This document shows positions 5,896 to 53,000 of a stretch of DNA of 64,000 bases, in pieces; position 1 is the first letter of the stretch, and each line of letters begins with the position of its first letter. Position numbers and translations under genes: made by a program. Source of the DNA: Psilocybe cubensis (lineage: Eukaryota); NCBI GenBank assembly GCA_017499595.2, contig CM039002.1, positions 1,302,001 through 1,366,000 on the forward strand, written 5' to 3'. The notes under the pieces are model-generated. The model was given only the letters and a program-made list of their open reading frames with translations. It did not search any database and was not told the DNA's origin.

Positions 5896-7339
5896 CTAGT
5901 GGGTATGACTATGGCCATTCATATGGCCATTGAGGGGAGAATGAGCGTGGCCGGTACTAGCTCCATTGCCAACGGGAATTTCGCGGTGTTGATGAATGTC
6001 GTGGATGACCCCAGCAGCCCCTCTGATATAAGCACTTCCACGCCCGTAGTATCCACCTCCATAGATGTGTAGGTTTTCTGCTGCTGTGATAGACGCGCTG
6101 GCGCTTGCATGCCCGACAGCGCCAGTAACCAGGGATTCCATTTGGGCGGAAACATGCTTCATTGCGGATGCTGTAATGGCGGTGATAGCTGTCTCCATTG
6201 CGATGGTGAGCATTTTATGCATCTCAATGGTGACATGCTCCACGGTCGTTTCAGCGATGCTGACGAGGGTCTCCTGCATAACAGGATGTTTTGCGAAGAC
6301 GCTGAGGTCTGGCTCGGCAATGACCTTAAACTTCATCCAAGGAACTTCGCTAAGCATAAGCGATAGCTTTTTATTGAGTTCGATGATGATAAGTACGCCA
6401 TTGGAGTTACGAAGTCGAGTGCGAAGGTCCAGGCGGGCAATTCGGTATTCATCGCCTTTATGTATCCGGTATTTCGCGACTAAAAAGAATCCATCGAGAG
6501 AATATTCGAAGCAATGGGTACTAAATCCTGAGATGTCCCACTGGAGATGGCCGTCGAGAAACCCGATGATTGTGTCGAGGTCAATCTTAGAGTGGACGAC
6601 TGCACCGTCGAGTCGACGACATTGGGCGTGAAGGAATGTTCCTTTGAGCTCAAGCTTCGTGCAAGTTTCCTCAATTAACAGGTGGTGACTTTCACTTGAA
6701 GGGAGCATGTCAAAAAAACGTCTCGAAGAAGATATTAGACATACCGTCTGAATGAAGAGGAAGCAAAGTACGACGATTTAGAAGTCATGGTAGATGATGT
6801 TGAGACTGTGGTGGCGCTTGACATAGTCGATGCCGCAGAGAACATGTTGGACGAACTGGCGGTAGTGGCCGTCGAAGCAGAATTTGCGGATAACATGGCT
6901 TTGGCGACATCTTGCCCTGCAACTAATTTTATGGGTTCAGGCCGTTTGGGTCTATGTTATATATGATGAGATTCGTATAGCTCGGTTGAGAGTCAGAACG
7001 GAAAACACACGAAGACAGTGATAGGGGACGGGTGATGAGTTCCAAAGAACCGTCAACGTTTTTGATGTGGCGGTTTAGATCGAGATGGCTCTCGGTAGCC
7101 TTGTCGGATCCTCCTTTGGACCTTGCTGTGAGAATTCCCTCCGCATTGACTGAGAGACTCTCGGCAGCAGCACTGAAGCCATGGGATCCCCAGGTTAATT
7201 TGCCGTCAATAAAGCCCACATAATCGTCCAGCTTGATGGAAGAACTCGAGAAATTGTTGGTGTCGCGAATCTTGCACTTGGCGGAAAGAACACCGGATTT
7301 TGAGATCGAGAATTCCTTGCAAGAAGATGAAAGTGACAT
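5896..7339 (-). CDS. Double CVNH (cyanovirin-N homology) lectin-domain protein with Ser/Thr linker, helical C-terminal domain and His-rich tail; copy 1
   Basis: Two CVNH-like units (LSAKC..SSIKLDDYVGFIDGKLTW..GF..SHLDLNRHIKNVDGSL and LHAQCRRLDG..SKIDLDTIIGFLDGHLQW..LDLRTRLRNSNGVL). Introns at about 6952-7010 and 6696-6744 keep the frame open. No signal peptide. Confidence 0.85.
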
Positions 7340-9370: not shown

Positions 9371-10793
9371 TTAGGTGTGTTTCGCGATTTCGGCGTAGCT
9401 GTGGTGGGCGTGGCCGTCCGCATGATAGCTTCCATGGGATTCGTAGTGAGCCGAGTGGCCGTTCGATGTCGCGCTATATCCGTAACCCCCAGCTGCACTA
9501 TAGCGTCCACGACCATAGAGGTGAAGGGATTCGGCTGCGGTGATCGAAGCGCTGGCGCTTGCATGGCCCACAGCACCAGAGACCAAAGTTTCCATTTGAG
9601 CAGAGACGTGCTTCATGGCGGAAGCGGTGATAACAGAAATAGCAGACTCCATTGCAATCGTGAGCATTTTGTGCATCTCGATGGTGACATGTTCGACAGT
9701 GCTTTCTGCGATGCTGATAAGTGTTTCTTGCATGACGGGATGTTTAGCGAACACGCTAAGGTCAGGCTCGGCAATAACCTTGAACTTCATCCAAGGGACT
9801 TCGCTGAGCATGACGGAAAGCTTCTTGTTGAGCTCAATGATAATGAGGACGCCATTGGCATTGCGGAGTCTGGTTCGAAGATCAAGACGAGTGATTCGGT
9901 ATTCGTCGCCCGCGTGAGGTTTGTATTTAGCGACCAAGAAGAAACCGTCAAGGGAGTATTCGAAGCAGTGAGTGCTGAATCCAGAGATGTCCCATTGGAG
10001 ATGACCCTCAAAAAATCCGATGATCGTGTCGAGGTCAATCTGAGAGTGGACGAGGGTACCATCAAGACGGCGGCACTGAGCGTGAAGGAACGTGCCCTTG
10101 AGCTCAAGCTTCGTACAGGTATCTTCAATCAAAAGGTGCTGGCTCTCACTGCAAAATAAACAACACGTTAGCACAAATGGTTGACCGCGGTTCGGAAGTA
10201 AGTACCTTCGGAACTTTGTAGAAGAGAAAGCAGCGTATGAAGAAGAAGAAGATGACTTGGTCTCTTTGAATGATGTGGACACAGATGTCGAGGTTGAAGT
10301 TGTTGAGGCAGCAGAGAACATGCTGCTGGCACTGGCAGCGCTGGCGATGCTCGAAACACTAGCCTCAGAAATTCCCCTCAACAGCTCAGGTGCAACGAGA
10401 TGTTTGCCATTGGCATGCCTGTGCGAAGTTACATGTCAGAAAAAGTAAAACAAAATTGTGGGTAGACACTCACGCATCGACTGGGTGTGGGTTGGGAATA
10501 ACCGCCAAGAGACCGTCGTGATTTTGAAGATATATATTAAGGTCGAGTTTGCTTTCGACCGTCTTGCCGTTCACTTTGAATTTGGCAGACAGTACACCGT
10601 TGTGTACATGAACGTCCTCGGCGTGGTGACTGAAACCTCTGCCTCCCCACACAAGTTTTCCGTCAGTTACTCCGATGTAATCATTGAGCGAGATTGAAGA
10701 GTGGATAGTGCTCTTCTTGTCGGCCTTTTTGCAATCAGCAGAAAGAACACCCTTGGTGATGGTGACTTTGTCGCAAGTTTCGGAAAAGATCAT
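9371..10793 (-). CDS. Double CVNH lectin-domain protein; copy 2 (tandem paralog)
   Basis: Same architecture and comparable intron positions as copy 1. Probable 5'-UTR intron at 10795-10848 (GTGCGT..CTAG) and TATAAA near 10934-10939 on the minus strand. Confidence 0.85.
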
Positions 10794-12720
10794 ACTAGAG
10801 GGCAGACTTGAGTCTCGCTGGTAACAAGAAAAATAAAACAGAACGCACTTGAAGTATGAAGAAGAAAATTGAGTTTGTGGATTACTTGGAGGTTGAGGAT
10901 GATGATAATAATTTCAAGTCGAAAAGTGGAGACTTTATACATCTTGCCTTCCGTGCAAACCTTAGTATAGGACAGGAAATTACCCGAATTCTAGTTTCGG
11001 ATCCGACCATGTTTGCATCCGACAAAACGACACTGGATCGCAATCGACGAATGCCAGTAAGATCCATGGCCCGTTTTTGGATAGTACAGGGAGCTCGGTG
11101 CCAGTGCCATAAATAACAGATCCTTTAACCTTAAACCCGAAATTTACAATTGAATTGAAAAGAGTCAAAGGAGCTAGACATGACCGATCACTTCTTTAAG
11201 TTCTTAATGCCGTGGTTTGATTGACATTTGCCATTCCATAATGAGGGGCAGGCACTGCGTATCTCCGGACACAAGAAAGGCGTCCAGTTCGAGAGCGAGA
11301 AAGAGCCAACATAGATAATGCATCGGGTTCAGCATATCGACTTCACTAATTTCAATCTTTCGAGGCACTTCTGCAGCGAATTTAACCAAGATGTGGGCCT
11401 GGAGAAATTCGGTCCGTGATGGAAAATTGGAATCACAGGGATTCAATGAAGTGAGCCTGGTGTAAGTATTCGTTGAAGAACCAGACAGGAACTACTAGTG
11501 AATGTTGAATGATTAATGCCCACAGCTGTGAAACACCATCGGTCAGAAATGTTGGCCGGTTCGAGGAACACTCGAGTTGAGGACATTCGATACGGTGTGT
11601 GGTAAAGCTGTCACTTCCAGAGCAGGAAGAGAGCGGTGCAGGGGGCTCGCAGGAATCTGACAACGAGGTTACGAGACAGAAAAAGACATGCCGTGTGTTA
11701 GCCAATTCATTTTTGTTTGCAGCTGCTTGGACGTCTTTTATAATTGACCACGGCGGACTTGCACTTGCGCGGTCACACTGTACAGATTTTGTTGAACTTT
11801 GTCAATCACTTTCGTAATAATCCCTATCGAAAGACCTTTCATCATTCCGCATAGTAAAATGACCGGAACCAAACATGACAAGCTTTGGAACTATAATCAT
11901 TGAACAATAGACAGATCATGCAACTATGCTTGTTTACCATGATGATCCAGTGGCCAATAATGCTATGGCTCACCTATTCGGTTTCACTACTAACTATTCT
12001 GGTTAGTAGGGAAAAATTGTGCGACAGTGTTTGGCCAGTAGCGAAGCATCGAATAATTGCATTCTTACAGCGGACAGACTTTAGCGCTTCAAGCTTCAGC
12101 TCTTGTCCAACCATTGCGAAATATGGAAAGAGATGTTTTCACGCCCATGAAATAGTATATGGGTACTGGCCAACAACCTGTGCCTCAGGACTCAAGGCTC
12201 ACAGGCGTCTCCGCGAGGAGAAAAGTACTACAAAGAAAAGTCAAATTCCGGGATGCGCCACACTATTAATCGGGTGTAGCCCTGATGTGGCCAAGAAAAT
12301 GCAGAACTACATCTTCTTTACCACTGTTTTAGGCCATCAGGAATTGGTGAGCAGAATGTGACTAGACAATTGGCTGACCACTGCCTGATATTGAAAAAAA
12401 ATTGATGAAAGCAAATTAAATTATTAATGCTGGACCAGAGGACTCAGCAGCAGGGTATTTACATAAAGGCAAATGGGTGGGTCAGAAAACCCAATCTAAG
12501 ACAACGGAAACTTGATTTAATTGGAGTTGCACGAATCGAATGTCATCTTCAAAGCGTCATAGTCGACGAAGAGTATAAGGAAAAGTATTGCCTAATGATG
12601 GCGTGGGAACAACAAGGAGAAATAGGGTGGTAGTGACGTCATGTGTAGGTGCGGGTATTTGAGAGACAACACGTCGCGTCGATGCAGCCATCCTTGCTTT
12701 CCACCAATACAGAAATTAAG

Positions 12721-42786: not shown

Positions 42787-44948
42787 TCACTTGCGCGATA
42801 ATGCATTCTTAGTGAATATCGAATTCACTAGACTAGACGACATAGATCTCTGGGGAACACGCTCATCTTGCTTCAAAGGTGAAAGTACCGACGGTATACC
42901 CAACGCATCGTCGACCTATAGCCAAAAAAAAAGTCCACCCATTATTAATATTACATGCAAAATGTACAGGAAAGAAGCAGAAGCAAATCAGCGCACCTGT
43001 GCCAAATTCAACGTATTAAAAGCGAACGGTCCAACGTTAGCAGCAAGAGGTATAAGTTTCCGTTTCTTTTTCTTCGGAACTTTCTCGTCATCGCCATCAT
43101 CGTCCTCGCCGTCTTTCTCCTCGCGGTCTGTGTCTGCTCGGGATACCGGCTGCTTGCTTCCCGCCCGTCTCGCTTTGTTAGGTTTCGCAGCAGGCGCCTC
43201 CCGCGCTTCACTTGGCGCTCTCGAGCTCTTCTTCGATCCCTTTGGCTTCTCCACAATTTGCGGTATATCTGCGTCATTTTGCTCCGTTGCCTTTCGTTTA
43301 CCCTTGGAATTTCGAGGCACAGCAGCAGCAGTAGCAGCAGCAGCATCTTCATCCTCGGCATGTTCACGTTCGACAGCTTTAGCTTTTCCTTTCCGTTTGG
43401 TGGTAGGAGCAGGCTGTTCCATTTCGTGTTCAGATATTTCGACGATGTCTGGGTCATCATCAGGGGTAGTGGTGGTGGTGGTGGTCGGGGGTTTCTTGCG
43501 ACGAGGTGGCATGCCGCCTGTTGACTTCCTTGCTATCTGCCGTTGATTTTTGCTGGGTTTGTCCTGGTCTTCGCGAGCTTTCGAGCTTGTCGCCTTTGAC
43601 GATGCTTTTTTACTGGCTGCAACGGGCTCCTCTTCTTCGATTTCTTCGATTTCGTCGTCGTCGACTTCCATTGGAGGAGGAGAGGTTGGTTTCCTAGATT
43701 TCTGCTGAAAACGCTAGTTGGTATTTTTGTGATGATTAGAGTAAAAAGACAGCATACGATGGGTGAAGGTCGGATTCGGGATCGTTCTTCTTCAATGTCT
43801 GCCTTGAGTTTCTCATTGGCTTTCTGAAGCTTGGCCATTTGCTTTTTGAGACTCTCATTTTCTTCCTCATGATTATTTGACTGACTCTGTTGACCAATGA
43901 GGACATGTAAGGCATAAACATAACACAATATTACTCACCTCCAATTCTGCCAAGGCATCTTTTGTTCTCTGCAGTCGGTTATGCGCCTTTTCGAGATCTC
44001 GTGCTGCCTTCTCGGTGTCATGTTCATACGCCTCCTTTATTTCGCGGAGCTCCAGTTCGAGTGCCACTATTTGTTTACGTTGTTGCTCAGCGGCTTCGCC
44101 CTCTTTGTTTTCTAGACTCTGCCATCGTTCAAGCTGGTTGGACAGGCTGGCTTTCTCTCGTTTGAGTTCATCAGCGAGGCGGTCGGCATCTGATAGCTTG
44201 TTTTGTAAAGCTTCCATGTTCAACGTTGTTCTCTGAAACTTTGTTTCCAGAGATTTGATCTCGTTCTCGAGAACAGCGTTTTTCGCGGTCAGATCGACGA
44301 CTTCAGCCTATTACAGTGTCAATGAAAGGGCTTGGAAATGGAATGAGAAACATTACCGACATCTTTAGCGTCCCTCTCCTGCTTTGCGATCCTGAGAGCA
44401 TTTCGCACTTCAGCCAACTGGAGTTTATTCGACTCGCGCGTTTCCTTGAGTTTCGCCAGATACGCCGCAGACTTTTCCTTCTCCGCTTGCAGCTCCCTCT
44501 GCATCTCCTCCGCAAACTCCGCCCTCTCCTCCTCCATCTCCTCCACCCTCCTCTCCAACTCCTGCTCGCGCATCTGAAAGCGCGTGATCTTCACATCCCG
44601 CTGGACCCTCAACAGCTTCTCCTCGCGCGTGATCGCCATCTCCCTAATCACCGCCGCGCGCTCCGTCTCGACTTCGACCTGCAGCTTCTTCTGCACGATG
44701 CGGTACGAGCTGAGCACGGCCTCGCAGCCTTCCTTCCACAGCTTTTGGTTCGCGTCCCATTTGGCTTGGATCTCGAGCACGGCGTCCCGTGTGCGCGCTT
44801 GCTCGTGGGAGACTTGGTCGGTGAGCTTTTTGATGGTGTGTTCGAGCGTGCGGTTGCGCTGCACGAGGTCGTCGATTTGCGCTTGGTTGGCGGCTTCGAG
44901 TGACGGAGGGGCTTTGGAGAAGTGGGGTCCTGCGTGCCGGAGGGACAT
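42787..44948 (-). CDS. Long coiled-coil protein with a basic disordered C-terminal half containing an H3-tail-like motif; possibly Mde4/Lrs4 (monopolin)-like
   Basis: Heptad-rich E/K/R exons, then ..QIARKSTGGMPPRRK.., KKKKRKL and LSPLK near the C-terminus. The monopolin resemblance rests only on recalled terminal motifs. Confidence 0.7.
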
Positions 44949-45291
44949 GGTGCAGTGGTGGGGGAGATAGATAATAGGTGGCGCTAGATCCGGGAGGCGC
45001 TTTCAAAGGAGTGAGGTTCGCGCAGAGATTAGTAGAGGCTAGAGTTGAGTTCGGTAAGCTAGATGATTTCCAGAAAAGATATTTCATAAAAGAAAGATAT
45101 GCTATATTTGCTCACAGAGGGTATTATATCCGATATGGAGGAGTATGCATGGAGGTAGCAAGAGAAGCGCGCGTCAACCCTTGTCCGTTCTGAATCGAGG
45201 GTGGAGAAGCAAGCGTGGGAAAGAGGCAATAAAGTCGCACGTGGGCGCGAAACGATTTCCAAACAAACAGAGCCCGCAATCACTGCTGTCC

Positions 45292-47237
45292 ATGGCTCCC
45301 TCCAAACCGGCCAAGAACATATCCCTCAGAGTACCGAGACACAATGCGCAGCGGATCAACGTCAAGCTGTCGGCGGAGGTGCAGAACCAGGCTAGAATGC
45401 AGCGGGTGCTGGTAGACGTCGTCCAGCCGAGCTCGAGGCTGTCGCAGGCCATTGTGTGTAAACTGAGTGTTATCTGTTTTTTTAAGGCGCTGAAATGGGT
45501 ATATCTAGGAAAGCGCATCGGATTGGAATTCATTGCTTATGACAGCTAGAGCCGAACGCGGACCACAATGGGACGTTGGCACACAACAGTCCGTCACCTT
45601 TGCTGCTAAATTGTTATAGTCATATTTCTAACAAACATCCAATATTCAGATTCCTAGTCGACAAATACTCTGATTTATACTATGACCCCACACCTCTGCT
45701 AGAGACAGTTAAAAAGTTGACAGAAGACGAGCACGGACCTGAATCAGGCTTGCAGAGCCAACAACAGCACCAGCACCAGCAACACCAGCATCAGCAGTCG
45801 CACCGCGACCACCGGGAGCACCAGCTTCCATCGCACCATCCTCCGCACGCGCCGTCCTCCTTCCAGCCCTCCCTCCCACCTCGGCACCAAACGCCGATGC
45901 GGGACAGAGACTTTGGGATGGCGCAGCACATGGCGCGGGACCAGTCCCCGCACCGACATCCAGGCGGCGGCGGTGGTGGTGGTGGTGGAGGAGGCCCCGG
46001 TGGCCCTGCGCAGGGGAACTACCCATACCCGCCAGGGATGAACATGCGTGGGCCGTCGAGCGGTGGGTTCCCTGGTGGAGGAGGACCATCGGGCGGCTCT
46101 CCGTTCAACCCAGCGGCGAATAGGTATATGGCGGCGGATCCTACGACACCAATACGCGGAGGAAGTGGGATGGGGATCTCGTCTCCTATAGGTGGTGATG
46201 GTATGCGACCTAACATGGGTGGTGGAGGAATGGGAGGAATGGGAGGAGGAATGGGACCTGCAGGGATGGGAGGGGGGATGGGAGGAGGAATGGGACCAAG
46301 TGGCATGGGAGGTATGGGAGGGGGCATGGGAGGAGTTGGCATGGGAGGTGGTGGTATGGGCGCAGGCGGCATGGGAGGCGGCGGTATGGGATCAGGCGGC
46401 ATGGGAGGCGGCGGGATGGGATCAGGGGGTATGGGTGGTGGGGGAATGGCAGGAGGTGGTATGGGCAACATGGGAGGAGGAATGGGCAACATCAGTGGAG
46501 GAGGCATGGGCAATATGGGGGTAGCAGGAATGGGCAACATGGGCGGAGCTGGAGGTATGGGCAATATCGGCGGCGGCGGCGGCGGGATGGGGAATATTTC
46601 AGGGGGCGGGATGGGTCCTATGGCCGGAGGGATGGGCAACATGTCAGGCGGAGGAATGGGCAACATCGGTCCCATGGGTGGAGGCGGCATGATGAATATG
46701 GGAGGTGGTATGCCCAATATGGCCGATCGAACAATGGCTGGTATGGGTGCAAACACCATGGGAGGAGGCGGCGGCATGGGTGGTATGGGCGGCATGGGCA
46801 TGGGCGGTATGGACGGCGCAGGGATGGGCAACATGGGCGGAGGTATGGGTGGCGGCATGGGCGGAAGCGGCGGCATGAACGCAGGCATGGGCACCGGTGT
46901 GGGTCCCATGGGCGTCGGCATGGGCGTCGGTATGAACTCGGGCATGGGAGGCATCAACTCGGGCATGGGCGGGATGGGCGGCGGGATGGGCGGGATGAAC
47001 GCTGGGATGGGCGGGATGAGTGCTGGGATGGGAGGCATGAACCCCGGGATGGGCGGCGGCGGGATGAACGCAGGCGTCGGCGGGATGGGCATGGGTGTCG
47101 GCGGGATGGGCATGGGCGGGATGGGAGGCGGGATGGGCATGGACCACGCGAACCCGATGGCTGCAGGCAACATGGGGATGGGCATGAACATGTCTCCGAG
47201 GGGGATGAACAGAGGCATGCCAGACGGTTACAACTGA
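45292..47237 (+). CDS. Protein with a ~100-aa N-terminal domain, a Q/H tract and a very long Gly/Met low-complexity domain
   Basis: Spliced N-terminus MAPSKPAKNISLRVP..SQAIV|SRAERGPQWDVGTQ|QFLVDKYSDLYYDPTPLLE. The open last exon to TGA 47237 is dominated by GGM/GMG repeats with varied codons. Confidence 0.8.
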
Positions 47238-47299
47238 TACATAATCGATATACCCTTCATTATTCCCCCTCTTTTTATTTTATTTTCGCTAATGTACTC

Positions 47300-50150
47300 A
47301 TGTATATCCTCTACTGCAGCTATCCTGTCTCTTTCATATCTCCTGATCTTCTTGTTTTTCTTTTCTTTTTACCACTTACCCAACCAAAAAAAAGTGTAAA
47401 CAAATCGCGCGCGCAACTTAAGTATCACACAGAGATGTAGAGGAGAAAAAAAGCTGCTCATGGGTGCGTTAAAAACCCACTGGGAAAAGTATAAAAACCC
47501 AATGGGAAAAGCTACCAAGGCAGGGACATGACAGACAAAAAAATCCACCGAGATCCTCAACATCAACAGAAGCAGAACTGAATCCCATTCCTCCCACTTC
47601 CATCCACACAAGGTCGGGGTGTCGAACGGAGGGTGGTAAATTGTCGAGTCGAGTCGAGTCGAGTAAGCGAGTTTCTTCGTCCTCCAAATCAACATGCCCA
47701 TCCATCCCGCCAATGCCAATGCCAATGCCAATGCCAAACCATCCCACTACAACCCAGCCCAACACCAAGGAAACAAAAAGTAAAAACAAAACAACAAACA
47801 ACGTACAAACTACCGAAAAAATCATCGTATATCTTGAGGAGATCCTTGGGTGCGTCAGCGTCAGCGTCAATTTTGCTTTTTTTTCTTCTCATTTCATTCT
47901 TTTTCTTTCGGGTTTTCTCGTAGATCTCTCAGTGTAGCACACAATGAACGATATTTCGAATAAAACTCAGCGGATTTGTCGCAGGTGTCAGCCCAGAAAA
48001 ATGACAACCCATCATCGCCTAGCCGCGCCGTAACAGCCAGAGAAGTCAAAGTCGAACACACGTCCTCGCCGTTCTCGGTGCCACGGCGCATCTACACGAG
48101 ACAGGTGCCGTAGGCTTGGGGATGGGGGATTTCATTCACTAAAAGCGCAGTTCGTCAGATTATATATGGGGTGAGGAGGATTGAAGCTGGAGTGTTACGC
48201 ACCGTATGTTGAAGAGCCTCTTGTATGGCTGTCGGATCGTCAAAAATTAAAAAGCAAAAAGCGAAAAAGAGAAAAAACTCAAAAAACGTCGAAGGAGGAT
48301 ACGCGGCACCAGAACCAGAACCAGCACCAGAAGAAGAACCAGAAAAAGAACCCAAAGGAACTCAGAGACTCAAGAGGTTGATAATGGAGTCGTTGCAGTC
48401 TTTTCTTTCTAGGCGTTGTCGTTGTCGTTGTCGTCGTTGTGGATGTCGTCGTCGTCGTCGTTGCGGATGATGCTCTCACTCATTCTCTCACTCATTCGCA
48501 ATCTCACTCACTCACTCACACCAAAGACTCATCGAACAAAAAAAAAACCTATATCCAAAAAAAGCAAAATCAGAATCCAGATTCCAAAACGAGGCCTCCT
48601 TAAAACAAAGAGAAAGCAAGAAAGCAAGAAAAAAGCGAGAAGGGAAGGAGGGAAGGAAGAAAGAAAGAAAGAAAGCCACGTACATGAAACGCTCACCGGT
48701 CTTGCGTGGCGTTTATCTTTTTCCTTTTTCGTTTTTCGTTTGTGTCTGCGTGTCTGCGTGGCAGTGATATGGCTCTATCATCAAAGGTAAAAAAGCGCGT
48801 ACACCAACGAGAACAAGAATGAGAAAGACGGAAGATGGAGGAGCGTACCTTTCGAGGCATATGTGCCAGCGGCTCCCCATGGGGAATATGTTCGTTTGTT
48901 TTTTTTTTGGTTTCGGTTTTTTTTGTTTCTGATTTTGGTTTTGGTTCCTCTTCGTCATCGTTTTTTTTTCCTTGTTTTTTTTGGCTTGTTGGTGTCGCGT
49001 TTCTCTTGATCTTGATCTTGCTTTGTTCCTTTTCGCTTCTTTTCGCTTCGTTTCGTTTCGTGGTGTGCTAAAATCTTGAAGGCAGTGATATGACTCTACA
49101 TTCCCATCGCATCGAAAGACATCAGCACAGCGACAACAAAACCTTCAAAAAAAGAAAAGAAAAGAAAAGAAAAGGAAAAAACAGAAAAACGAAAACGAAG
49201 AAAAACGAAGAAAAGCAGAAAAACAGAAAAGAGAAAAGGGAAAAAACGAAAAACGAAAAAAGAAGAAAAAACTCGCCATAGAGTCATATATGCCATCTGT
49301 CCTCCTCCGTTTCATTTTTCAGTTTTATTTTTTAATTCGTTTGTTTGTTTGTTTGCTTGCTTGCTTTATGTTTTCCTTTTGGTTTCTCGTTTCTCGTTTC
49401 TTTTTTCTTGATCTGTTTCGTTGTCGTCCTCGCTTTTTTTTCGTTTCGTTTTATCTTGATCCTCATATTCCGCCTTATCAATCCCCATCTCCTTTATTAT
49501 TATTATTTTTCTTGATGTTTCATCCGTTTATCTTTTATCTTGACGTTCACATTTTATATTTGCTGGGCTACAACACAAGAAACCCACGCGTCAGACACCC
49601 AGAAAACACAACACAAAGTAAGAAAAGGAAAGGACACATACAAAGAGAGAGAGAGGGCCATGTCAGTGGTATGTAGAAACGACGACGCACTGTATCATGA
49701 TGATCGATAGACGTCAGCCATCTAGTATGGACAAGGGCTAGGTAGCCAGCAGAAGACGTACCTTCCGTATTCTTATTCCGTATCATTCGTCTTCGATTGT
49801 GTGTATGTGGAACCCTTTCTCTTGTTTCTATTGAGCGATGTTGTCGTTATTATTATTATTATTATTGTTGTTGGCGATGTCGATGTCGATGTCGATGTCG
49901 AGGTCCATGGCGATGTCGAAGTCGAGTACGATATCGCCTTTACCCAAAACCCACCAACGCCCAAGGACACAAACAAGGCGACACCGAAATGCCACCCCGC
50001 CCACGCCCCAAAGCAAAGGCAAGCAAAGAGTAAAGTGAAAGGCCAACCCCCGCCCTACTAGGTACAAGGCGGGAGAAGAAAAGAAAAAGAAACGTAGAAC
50101 GTAGAAGGTGGAAGGTAGGAAGAAGGGGAAGAGTTGTGAAGAAAGAAGAA
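47300..50150 (-). ncRNA. Candidate long structured non-coding RNA (ends approximate)
   Basis: TATATAAA at 50169-50176 (-) followed by a CT-rich tract. Intron 49690-49761 (GTACGT..GCTGAC..CAG). Minus-strand G-U hairpin at 49938-50035, duplicated stems at 48759-48868 and 49081-49294, and no credible ORF. Confidence 0.55.
47640..49900. repeat. Dense microsatellites and A-rich/T-rich tracts
   Basis: (GAGTC)n near 47646-47664, (CAATGC)n near 47711-47736, (CGATGT)n near 49875-49900, (TAT)n near 49848-49866, and alternating A-rich and T-rich blocks at 48540-49560. Confidence 0.85.
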
Positions 50151-50168
50151 ATGACAGAGGAAGGGGGG

Positions 50169-50176
50169 TTTATATA
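50169..50176 (-). promoter_or_regulatory. TATA box
   Basis: TATATAAA on the minus strand, followed by a pyrimidine-rich initiation-like tract. Confidence 0.6.
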
Positions 50177-50704
50177 CACCTGTGGCTGACTGCTGATCGT
50201 AATCCTGTATATCTGTATATCTCATTTGGGAGGCTGAGGCTTGAGGCGTGAGGCGTGAGGCTGACTCGGTCGTGCATACACACACACAACATACACACAA
50301 AAGTTATTTTTGGAAATGTGTGGCACACAAACCGGCAAAGTCGGGTCCAAGACCAATGCCGTCGCGATGTCGGATTTCGAATGCGTCCGGGATTAGAACT
50401 GGTTAATGGAGGGGGGTAAAAATCATTGAAGTTTGACCTGTTGAACTCGCTCGTTCAAAATTGGAATAAAAGGACACTGTAACTTTCGGAGGGCGCGTAT
50501 GGCTTGATCTTGATCGCGGCACGACAGGATCGCAACGTGCTTCCATGTTCAAAGAATCAATCTAGGAAATACAGAAATAAATAAACAATATAAAATTTTG
50601 ATTAGCATTGTGTGGGGGTTTGATACAAGTGAGTGAGTAGGGGGGTTAGATGCACGAGTTAAATAGCCCGATTAGTAGGGAGGAAGAAATGGTAAGTTGT
50701 GTGT

Positions 50705-52106
50705 CTAGACGTGGGCGGGTTTTGCTTTTTCTTCGGTTTCAGGGTCGACCAGCATATGCCATAGTTCAGGCCCGTCGCGGATTAAAGCCTTGTTGGGGAC
50801 GGACGGACGGACGTCAGCTAGCGAATAAAAAAGGCCAACGAGGGTGGCTTACAATGACAACTTCAACAGCAATGAGAGCAATGATAATAAGTTCCATCGA
50901 GTGCGTTGATGACTGGCAAAATAAAGTTGTTCAAAGGCTGTCTTTACACCTAGAAAAAAGGTGTACACACCTCGGTCAGCAATTGACGAAGCATCGATTG
51001 AGCTTCAGCCGCATAAGTAATCTTGTCATTGAAGGATGCGGTTCGCGACGTGACTTCCAGCGCATCACTCAAAGACTTGAAGTGAGCTGTAAATTTCAAA
51101 ATAAGCATTCACATCCAAGAATAATCGTCCGTGCAAGCTCTACCTTCCAACTCGGGCTCCGACCAATAAAAGTCTGGTACTTCGGTAAAGTTCTCCCTGT
51201 TAAGATTCAAAAGCTGCCTAAACTTCATGAGTTCGCCGAGTTTCTTGATAAGCTGTGTGCGCCCCATGCCAGGTTTGCCTGTCTGCGCCAGAGTATGTGG
51301 AAGCAATGCCATAGAGCTCAGATACTGGTCCAGAGACACCTCCAGCGCTGAGAGCGCCGTCGAACGAGAAAGGGCCTGGGAGAACGCGTATCGGGCCAGA
51401 AGAGTCTCCTCCGGGAATGCCATGGGAGGAAGAACCTTGGGCAGCAATTCAGGCTCGTTAAGTGGTTCAGCCTGGCCGAGGATAATCAAGTCTCCCTGCA
51501 ATCTCGTTTTTCTAGTAAACACGTTCAGCACACATCCTGAAAATAACAGTACACAGACACGCACTCGATAGGATCCACCACGAATTCCAATTCCTCAGTT
51601 TCCGGTTCTCCCAAGGGAGAGACTTCCATGCCTCTAGCGCGGTCAATCACGTCGCTGACGAATGTCTTCGCCTCCGTCTCTCCAAGTCCCCAACACACAA
51701 TATTGCCGTTCGAAAATACAAAGATCTCGCCTTCTTTCCCTGCTTCGCCCCATTTCGGAATCCACCAAGACTCGTGCAGCGCCTGAGACCGAGCAGGCAG
51801 GTCGGGATGAGAACGGAGACGCGAGAGGATATATCGTTCCGCAGTGGCGAGAGTCGTGACGGGTTGTATGGTACCCCTCGTTGGTGTTGGATTTGAGCGA
51901 ATAGGCAACGACTCGGAAGCTGAACGGCGTAGAGGTGTTGTCGACTTTGGTTTAGCCTTACCGTCAGACAAAGGATTCGCGGACGCAGCAGCAGGCTTTT
52001 TCGCGGAATAGCATCGTGTAGAAACCCATTGAGGAGAGAAAATAGCTCTGGTCAAACTTTGACCAAATCTTGGAATACTTGTGGAAGAAAGCCTAAGAGA
52101 AGCCAT
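50705..52106 (-). CDS. DUF155 protein of the RMND1/Sif2/Rmd family, probably mitochondrial (Mrx10-like)
   Basis: Presequence-like N-terminus, GEIFVFSNGNIVCWG, AFSQALSRSTALSALE, PDFYWSEPELE, INDKITYA and a C-terminal TM segment MELIIIALIAVEV. Confidence 0.87.
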
Positions 52107-52289
52107 AACAAATTGGCCGGAACGAGATTGATTATATCATTACCCAGCCGAGCCGTGATGTCGTCTCACTCCGGCGACCCGTCTGCATTACACTACAAAA
52201 TGTAAGTAACTCAGACAATTCACACAAATAATAGGCGTCTCAAACCAAGTAAAATTTTTGTTCTACTCGATACATGTACGTAAAATTGG

Positions 52290-53000
52290 CCTAGTACATG
52301 GGAGACACCAGATGACCTGGGGTAATTGATTTGAATATTCTGGAATCCACACCATGATGGACAGTCGGCCCATACAACAATCCTCTGCTTTCACATCCCA
52401 GTCTCGACGCCGCAAAGGCCCGGACAAGAGTCGTCAACAACTGCAATGGCGCGGATATCCTTTCCGCCCACCAGGCTTTGCGCCCTTTCCCCCTTCCGAC
52501 ACTCGAGCACACTGAGGACCAAAGCCACAAGTGATACCTTGTATGCCCCGCTGGAGCACCACGTGAAAAACTAGATCCATTCATCAGACCAGGCATCGCA
52601 GGAATGATTAGAAAACCAACTAACCCCAGCCGAAACGCCTAAACAGGCGTCTCCATGAAGCCACTAGTCTCATCGAGACCAGCGGACACAGGATACCGAT
52701 AGTAACAAAAGACGATAGTAAAACGGGGACTAAATCCTTCAAAGGCGATATGAGTAAATACAATAAAAAGCAGTAAGACTGGAGATACGAACCAAAAATC
52801 CATCAACCAGCTAGGGATGCCGACAATTCCCTTAGCTTTACTGTGATGACATAGAAACGATTATCCGACACTAGGACTTCGACTCATAACGATCGGGAGA
52901 ACACCATACTGATACCTCTGTGAAAGAAAAGATCAGGAAAGCGATTAGACGATGTGGGGGATAACATACTCAGACATGGTGGGGTTTACGACCAAAGAAT
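52290..53000 (-). ncRNA. Candidate short spliced structured RNA or micropeptide gene (ends approximate)
   Basis: TATATAAA at 53021-53028 (-). Three canonical-looking introns (52918-52969, 52841-52909, 52737-52792). Only tiny ORFs from ATG 52977. G-U-containing hairpins at 52661-52685 and 52632-52653. Confidence 0.45.

Follow-up and report, generated by a model that had tools for sequence, protein, structure and literature searches.

A predicted long, G-U-rich hairpin in the first exon of a spliced, putatively non-coding RNA of Psilocybe cubensis

The locus described here lies in a 64,000-nucleotide (64-kb) stretch of Psilocybe cubensis DNA (assembly GCA_017499595.2, contig CM039002.1, positions 1,302,001 to 1,366,000 of the forward strand), the whole of which was analysed and is called the window below; coordinates count from its first letter. 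Downstream of a minus-strand gene of the DUF155/RMND1 family, the same strand encodes a spliced RNA, and the segment of its first exon at 49938-50035 is predicted to fold back on itself into one long stem-loop in which about half of the base pairs are G-U wobbles. This is very likely a real hairpin in an expressed, spliced non-coding RNA. Of five public runs of one organism, X3 to X5 being of genome size, four were mapped on 44000-53000, X1 and X2 as assembled contigs and X3 and X4 as DNA runs, and together with the sequence they define the following features of the transcript.

49938..50035, minus strand: main hairpin, studied by scripted pairing, folding, shuffles and helix-score scans
47066..50131, minus strand: spliced RNA, from X1 contig record 3 and X2 contig record 7, with its 3' end between 47066 and ~47716
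50131-49762, 49689-49642, 49567-49277, 49095-48849, 48774-48684, 48548-48203 and 48138-~47066, minus strand: exons of the six-intron model
49690..49761, minus strand: intron 1, 72 nt, GT..AG, joint 49689>49762 in X1 and X2 and absent from X3 and X4
49568..49641, minus strand: intron 2, 74 nt, GT..AG, joint 49567>49642
49096..49276, minus strand: intron 3, 181 nt, GC..AG, U-rich and of low complexity, joint 49095>49277 with plus-strand ends CT..GC
48775..48848, minus strand: intron 4, 74 nt, GT..AG, joint 48774>48849
48549..48683, minus strand: intron 5, 135 nt, GTACGT..TAG, deduced from record numbering, joint unlisted
48139..48202, minus strand: intron 6, 64 nt, GT..AG, joint 48138>48203

All 15 joints listed for the mapped interval are confined to X1 and/or X2, with none in X3 or X4. 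Fourteen of them end as introns do, in GT..AG or, on the plus strand, in CT..AC and CT..GC, and fall into three transcription units that include both flanking protein genes, and because of these intron-type joints X1 and X2 were treated as RNA assemblies. The joint 45796>47709 (GT..CC, X2 only, 25 letters on its shorter side) is likely a repeat artefact and was set aside. The hairpin RNA is represented by record 3 of X1, a contig of 2920 nt with a mean word depth of 630 that covers 47066-50585, and by record 7 of X2, of 1817 nt and depth 170, which extends from 47716 to 50131 (the latter end being given by record numbering and bin depth); both share the same minus-strand introns. Intron 5 appears in the two records as 135 nt skipped beside a masked repeat and is confirmed by its splice-site sequence and by the exact match in length, as the six-intron model comes to 2920 nt, the length of the X1 record. 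Counted from 50131, the spliced RNA measures 2466 nt. The earlier note on this DNA had assigned the structure to minus-strand RNA, and this assignment is now backed by transcripts, since all six introns in the X1 and X2 contigs have minus-strand ends (GT..AG, one GC..AG). X1 shows no differing letter over the hairpin stretch 49933-50585, and none of the four runs yielded a reported difference. As far as contig depth, a poor measure of expression, can indicate, the abundance of the RNA is probably high (in X1 a depth of 630, roughly ten times the 21-64 of the contigs of its two neighbouring genes; in X2 170 against ~31-132). As a separate observation, intron 3 is complementary to A-rich exon stretches (48707-48741 with 49244-49278, 35 nt at 83%; 48718-48736 with 49242-49260, 19 nt at 95%), and this complementarity could reflect long-range pairing in the precursor or chance.

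Within the main hairpin, scripted pairing of the minus-strand RNA aligns 47 positions on either side of a UUCG loop (49985-49988) without a gap and yields 21 Watson-Crick pairs, 20 G-U pairs and six mismatches, exactly the count that had previously been made by hand. All six mismatches are U-U (50010/49963, 50016/49957, 50017/49956, 50025/49948, 50026/49947 and 50027/49946), and the uninterrupted helix adjoining the loop is exactly 21 bp long. The composition of the element is strongly skewed (39 U, 37 G, 17 C and 5 A). Refolding of the minus strand of 49930-50045 against shuffles, which the earlier note had proposed, bore the helix out: the predicted energy is -52.1 kcal/mol against a shuffle mean of -33.0 (z -6.29), and none of 200 dinucleotide shuffles folds as well, while the plus strand of the same interval reaches -15.8 kcal/mol (z -0.12), with 82 of 200 shuffles as good. 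Folded alone, the 98-nt hairpin has a predicted energy of -50.1 kcal/mol. In a spliced context of 1951 nt, 39 of the 41 pairs have a pair probability of at least 0.86 and the other two have 0.62 and 0.71, with 0.17 for the outermost position of the hairpin; this context follows a five-intron model that differs by 135 nt at a distance of ~1 kb from the hairpin, and the maximum pair span was 600. Allowing G-quadruplexes left the minimum free energy (MFE) unchanged, and the quadruplex motifs present are two-tetrad only. The folding models thus give good support for a thermodynamically dominant stem-loop of about -50 kcal/mol in exon 1. Its loop resembles the C(UUCG)G tetraloop in the letters UUCG but differs in its closing pair, which is U-G here, followed by A-U, instead of C-G, and the extra stability of the canonical C(UUCG)G is not to be assumed for a U-G-closed loop.

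Whether so skewed a sequence could form such a helix by chance was a caveat of the earlier note, which had warned that G/U richness makes pairing easier. Shuffling the main hairpin within blocks of 6, 8, 12, 16, 24, 29, 58 and 116 nt, 400 times each, keeps the layout of its G-rich and pyrimidine-rich segments; the resulting z-scores range from -5.4 to -7.1, and the observed energy was reached in none of the 3200 shuffles. Among 4406 windows of 116 nt on both strands of the whole 64 kb, the one with the hairpin ranks third by lowest raw energy, the two with lower values both lying in a coding repeat of 68-69% GC. The z-score of the 116-nt window with the hairpin, -5.8, is the lowest of the 24 windows whose composition-corrected residuals are most extreme, the next being -5.0, so that on energy z-score alone the hairpin tops the 64-kb window, by a margin that is not wide. 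The separation is larger for a gapless-helix score, defined as pairs minus twice the mismatches: the main hairpin scores 29, and the runner-up in the window, both strands considered, 15. When the whole window was shuffled 40 times in 20-nt blocks, the highest score per shuffle fell between 13 and 18, and on either strand of 72 related natural fungal loci, 552,039 bases in all, the top score is 18. In these comparisons the caveat does not hold. It keeps some weight for random 64-kb sequences with the G/U-rich composition of the hairpin, one in 30 of which reached a score of at least 29 (37), the other 29 giving 18-26. Such a helix is accordingly expected about once per 2 Mb of pure G/U-rich sequence, and only a few hundred bases of the window are of this kind. 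Moreover, Watson-Crick pairs occupy 21 of the 47 positions, against ~8 expected from composition (P ~1e-5). The main hairpin exceeds chance and is confirmed not to be an artefact of composition.

The scan of window folds also flagged a further element of the same RNA.

47993..48108, minus strand: second long hairpin, in the last exon

This second hairpin comprises 43 pairs (23 G-C, 11 A-U and 9 G-U) with five bulges and G-G, A-G, G-A and A-A mismatches, but not a single A-C, and in folds of 47985-48115 the minus strand reaches -60.3 kcal/mol (z -4.5) against -37.1 (z -1.7) for the plus strand. G-U pairs, which read as A-C mismatches on the opposite strand, therefore outnumber A-C by 20 to 0 in the main hairpin and by 29 to 0 in the two hairpins together. 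In addition, U-U mismatches, which are among the least disruptive in an RNA helix, make up six of six in the main hairpin, where composition predicts ~30%. Both patterns favour constraint at the RNA level. For the earlier view that the one-sided wobble may point to selection on RNA structure, the case is a statistical one, made up of the 29:0 asymmetry, the U-U mismatches and the extreme shuffle results, no orthologue having been found in the 72 related loci. The companion claim, that the element is not a DNA inverted repeat, was borne out in part. An inverted repeat or foldback would fold on both strands and have Watson-Crick arms, which is not what is seen (plus-strand z -0.12; Watson-Crick pairs at 21 of 47 positions), whereas the same 21 pairs exceed the ~8 expected. 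Two other origins were considered and rejected: a tandem duplication of the arms, as their direct similarity is not above that of block shuffles (279 of 500 score as high), and a dispersed repeat or transposon, as nothing else in the window matches 47240-50700. A 28-codon open reading frame (ORF) at 48015-47929 (minus strand) overlaps the 3' arm of the second hairpin and ends in CVLH, a CaaX-like terminus of the kind known from fungal lipopeptide pheromone precursors. Of the 15 ORFs of at least 230 aa in the window, 10 were scanned and gave no receptor-type family, and the resemblance was treated as chance.

The position of the main hairpin within the RNA depends on the transcript start and on the first initiation codon, for which the leader offers these landmarks.

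50169..50176, minus strand: TATATAAA box, followed by a CT-rich leader, from reading the sequence
50047..50075, minus strand: small hairpin (11-bp stem) shortly upstream of the main hairpin in the MFE structure of the leader 50131-49900
49828..49908, minus strand: first AUG (GCCAUGG) and a 26-codon ORF of (GACATC)n and (AAT)n microsatellites

The end of the X2 contig, at 50131, falls 45 nt past the first base of the TATATAAA box and 96 nt ahead of the main hairpin, and a separate X2 contig of low depth (11.9) lies over 50108-50497. We infer a transcript start near 50131 and go no further, because contigs cannot prove ends; the distance of 96 nt agrees with the ~100 nt from the 5' end that had been estimated before. 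The AUG at 49908 is the sole ATG between 50131 and 49906 and lies 29 nt past the main hairpin. Its ORF consists entirely of microsatellite, (GACATC)n and then (AAT)n, with the predicted product MDLDIDIDIDIANNNNNNNNNDNIAQ. The longest AUG-initiated ORF of the RNA has 118 aa (47825-47469, starting at about position 1707); in shuffles the longest ORF has a median of 63.5 aa and reaches 104 aa at the 95th percentile. Neither this ORF nor one of 110 aa has a Pfam match, and for the former a search limited to proteins of 64-207 residues gave no homologue at E<=0.01 in 234 candidates. With no long or conserved ORF downstream of the hairpin, the host is best called a spliced long non-coding RNA (lncRNA). 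At the edge of the small upstream hairpin, a DNA contig of X4 matches as far as 50047 and then diverges into 168 purine-rich letters that differ from the window; it may represent a second haplotype or a low-complexity stretch located elsewhere in the genome.

The upstream RMND1-family gene has its best named relatives in Agaricomycetes such as Asterophora, Pholiota and Serpula. On the other side, at 45543-47237 on the plus strand, lies a gene whose very G/M-rich, low-complexity protein (long GGMGGGMG-type repeats) is conserved in its N-terminal part and matches no Pfam family. The 72 related loci were obtained by a metagenome scan with one RMND1 exon and have 36-93% protein identity. When the minus strand of 51200-47000 was compared with them by BLASTN, the only matches were to RMND1 exons, to the coding end of the G/M-rich gene (L001, L004 and L006), to A-rich low-complexity sequence (L072) and to an element of ~80 nt (L008). 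Apart from the A-rich matches of L072, the interval 50700-47550 showed no similarity in the 72 loci, and the main hairpin was unmatched. In five of these loci (L001, L004, L005, L006 and L007), TBLASTN places the G/M-rich gene in convergent orientation ~270-390 nt past the last RMND1 exon match, against ~3470 nt here, which leaves no room for the hairpin RNA locus in any of the five relatives with the same arrangement; these syntenic relatives are distant, at ~70% DNA identity in the neighbouring exons. Nine more distant loci have the G/M-rich gene ~2.7-2.9 kb downstream in the other orientation, and the remaining loci either gave no match to it or lie on contigs that are too short. From this comparison, the hairpin RNA locus appears to be lineage-restricted. 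In 16 of the 72 loci the sequence downstream of the RMND1 gene was scanned for folds; some stretches reach -48 to -54 kcal/mol and were dismissed as GC-rich coding repeats or two-strand folds (L019), none of them a long gapless helix in the sense strand.

The ~80-nt element shared with L008 lies at 47454-47545, near the 3' part of the RNA, and contains a duplicated 20-mer, CTTTTCCCA[G/T]TGGGTTTTTA on the minus strand. It is 93-95% identical to L008 12639-12697, the rest of the L008 intergenic region being unaligned, and its copy there lies after a TATA box (~12068) and a short unit without a conserved ORF. The element could mark a positional counterpart of the RNA or be a conserved 3' element. 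This element apart, neither the other loci nor the 64-kb window contain a protein or DNA relative of the small transcript-like unit in L008.

The main hairpin falls into no curated RNA family. Rfam yields no match at gathering score in the whole 64-kb window, and the seven matches obtained for 46900-50700 at E<=5 are all far below gathering, none of them on the main hairpin. Host genes of small nucleolar RNAs (snoRNAs) of the GAS5/UHG type have many short introns, ORF-less exons and a high RNA level. The present RNA resembles them in these respects but differs in having no Rfam snoRNA at gathering score and in that four of its six introns are only 64-74 nt; two C/D matches at 49241-49329 are far below threshold, and lineage-specific snoRNAs would escape Rfam. 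To our knowledge, few fungal lncRNAs have a defined structural element, and the annotation of microRNA-like RNAs (milRNAs) in basidiomycetes is weak. The main hairpin adds a new case to a known kind, the structured elements of fungal lncRNAs, and is unusual in its length, its wobble content and its one-sidedness. The locus offers a clean test case for what such an element does, combining a probably abundant spliced non-coding RNA with two long hairpins whose wobbles (29 G-U, no A-C) mark the strand that the transcripts confirm.

The role for which the main hairpin may have been selected is tentatively proposed to be that of a barrier in cis to ribosome scanning, which would keep the RNA untranslated and stable; a probability of roughly 0.3-0.35 is given to this reading. 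With ~96 nt between it and the 5' end, and with the sole leader AUG following after 29 nt, the hairpin would impede scanning 43S complexes, and the short ORFs behind it would stay largely untranslated. The host RNA would then escape translation-coupled decay, that is, nonsense-mediated decay (NMD), and accumulate. G-U pairs would allow a helix of 47 positions to be encoded in the RNA without creating a DNA palindrome or a foldable antisense strand. If its 26-codon ORF were translated, an RNA of more than 2 kb with six junctions would be a textbook target of NMD, yet it assembles at high depth, and for this reason the scanning barrier is considered the best supported of the possible roles. Hairpins of about -50 kcal/mol reportedly block scanning, according to Kozak. 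Leader stem-loops of this type share with the present case a helix of ~-50 kcal/mol between the 5' end and the first AUG. In a study of a yeast lncRNA reporter, an engineered stem-loop upstream of a small ORF is described as abolishing translation as well as cycloheximide and NMD sensitivity (PMC11098462). The present hairpin differs from such constructs in being natural, in its 47 positions of which half are G-U, and in its basidiomycete lncRNA host. A link between double-stranded RNA and escape from NMD has also been reported for yeast lncRNAs (PMC4747904); the duplex there forms between two RNAs, whereas here it is predicted to be intramolecular. If the scanning barrier is real, the hairpin would provide a natural counterpart of the engineered stem-loops with which the fate of yeast lncRNAs is studied.

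Several points weigh against a scanning barrier. It accounts for the first hairpin only, the second lying ~1.4 kb downstream in the last exon with the same one-sided wobble. Helicases may unwind a helix with half of its pairs G-U. The X1 contig reaches 50585, and a leader of that length would add five AUGs ahead of the hairpin. Contig depth, from which the abundance of the RNA is read, is a weak gauge of expression. Finally, the absence of the locus from all five syntenic relatives means that there is no conservation behind any function.

The last point leads to the reading that survives best beside the scanning barrier, namely that the hairpin has no selected role. It would have arisen through sequence turnover, by inverted duplication or slippage, in a young, low-complexity, lineage-restricted locus in which strand-biased C to T and A to G changes then produced the G-U pairs, and the RNA would fold without anything depending on the fold. 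This is possible, if doubtful. The region 47.3-50.2 kb is of low complexity throughout and filled with microsatellites and short repeats, and a recent origin would agree with the lack of room in the five syntenic relatives and of similarity, L072 low complexity excepted, in the 72 loci. The excess of Watson-Crick positions is what a decayed inverted repeat would leave, and half of the pairs being G-U is the expectation for G/U-rich sequence, one in 30 random sets of which attained the score. On the other hand, neutral, strand-symmetric decay predicts G-U and A-C in about equal numbers instead of 20:0 and 29:0. Strand-biased mutation of an old inverted repeat, acting on the non-template strand of a highly transcribed G-rich leader, could still be the source of the wobbles; transcription-linked mutation asymmetries are, however, as far as is known well under ten-fold, and exons 3-5 are A-rich (43-55% A) and therefore speak against a general or dominant A-to-G bias. 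Nor does a by-product of turnover readily account for mismatches that are all U-U where ~30% is predicted, for the lack of any indel over 47 positions, for a fold that shuffles of local composition never approach, or for arms that are not significant direct repeats of each other (block shuffles as high in 279 of 500). Should the hairpin prove to be neither a barrier nor diced, it would show how strongly structured an RNA can arise in low-complexity DNA.

A third reading is rather unlikely but would explain both of the long hairpins that one spliced non-coding RNA of Pol II type has on the same strand: the transcript would be a hairpin-RNA precursor (of milRNAs or hairpin-derived small interfering RNAs) whose two ~45-bp stems are cut by Dicer into RNAs of ~21-22 nt. 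Known precursors of small RNAs have far fewer G-U pairs than the 20 of 41 seen here. The full-length RNA with its hairpin intact also assembles at high depth, so that most molecules would be uncut. In favour of the reading, the uninterrupted helix next to the loop is exactly 21 bp. The structural rules for fungal hairpin loci quoted in PMC9757828 exclude secondary stems and allow up to 20 unpaired bases in the duplex. The main hairpin agrees with that rule text, its one stem being unbranched, with 12 bases left unpaired and a loop of 4 nt. Fungal milRNA precursors likewise are unbranched, largely paired foldbacks of intergenic non-coding transcripts of Pol II type; the transcript here has no Rfam structural RNA match. 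Hairpin precursors of milRNAs are reported, for example, from Coprinopsis cinerea (PMC6145500). However, well-supported fungal hairpins tend to be short according to PMC9757828, and the stem here is longer than those, very high in G-U and not conserved. Conservation, a further criterion for milRNA loci, finds no support: the hairpin is present in none of the 72 related loci, which show no similarity to it and whose best helix scores 18 against 29, and the locus is missing in all five syntenic relatives. Furthermore, no 21-mer of either arm finds a target of at least 18/21 elsewhere in the 64-kb window. That the locus is a young, lineage-restricted primary transcript, a six-intron non-coding RNA whose two ~45-bp G-U-rich stems would be diced into regulatory small RNAs, is improbable to much the same degree; dicing would make it a well-defined, young Agaricomycete gene for hairpin RNA.

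Very unlikely is a regulatory 5' UTR (untranslated region) hairpin of an mRNA for a small protein (the 118-aa ORF at 47825-47469 or one of the short ORFs), for although 118 aa slightly exceeds the shuffle 95th percentile, that ORF begins with a hydrophobic stretch and the first AUG is in the strong context GCCAUGG, the 118-aa ORF lies behind twelve listed AUG-ORFs of at least 25 codons and has no Pfam match or homologue in the searches above, the first ORF is 26 codons of microsatellite and the locus is missing in relatives.

Two other features of the window lie apart from the hairpin RNA. At 52127-53000 the RNA contigs have a depth of ~10,000-11,000 each, against 21-64 in X1 for those of the two genes beside the hairpin RNA, and two minus-strand introns are present (52570>52625 and 52735>52792), making this a very highly expressed neighbouring gene. 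Further away on the minus strand, two ORFs ~3.5 kb apart, at 5896-6777 and 9371-10435, each contain a CVNH (cyanovirin-N homology) lectin domain.

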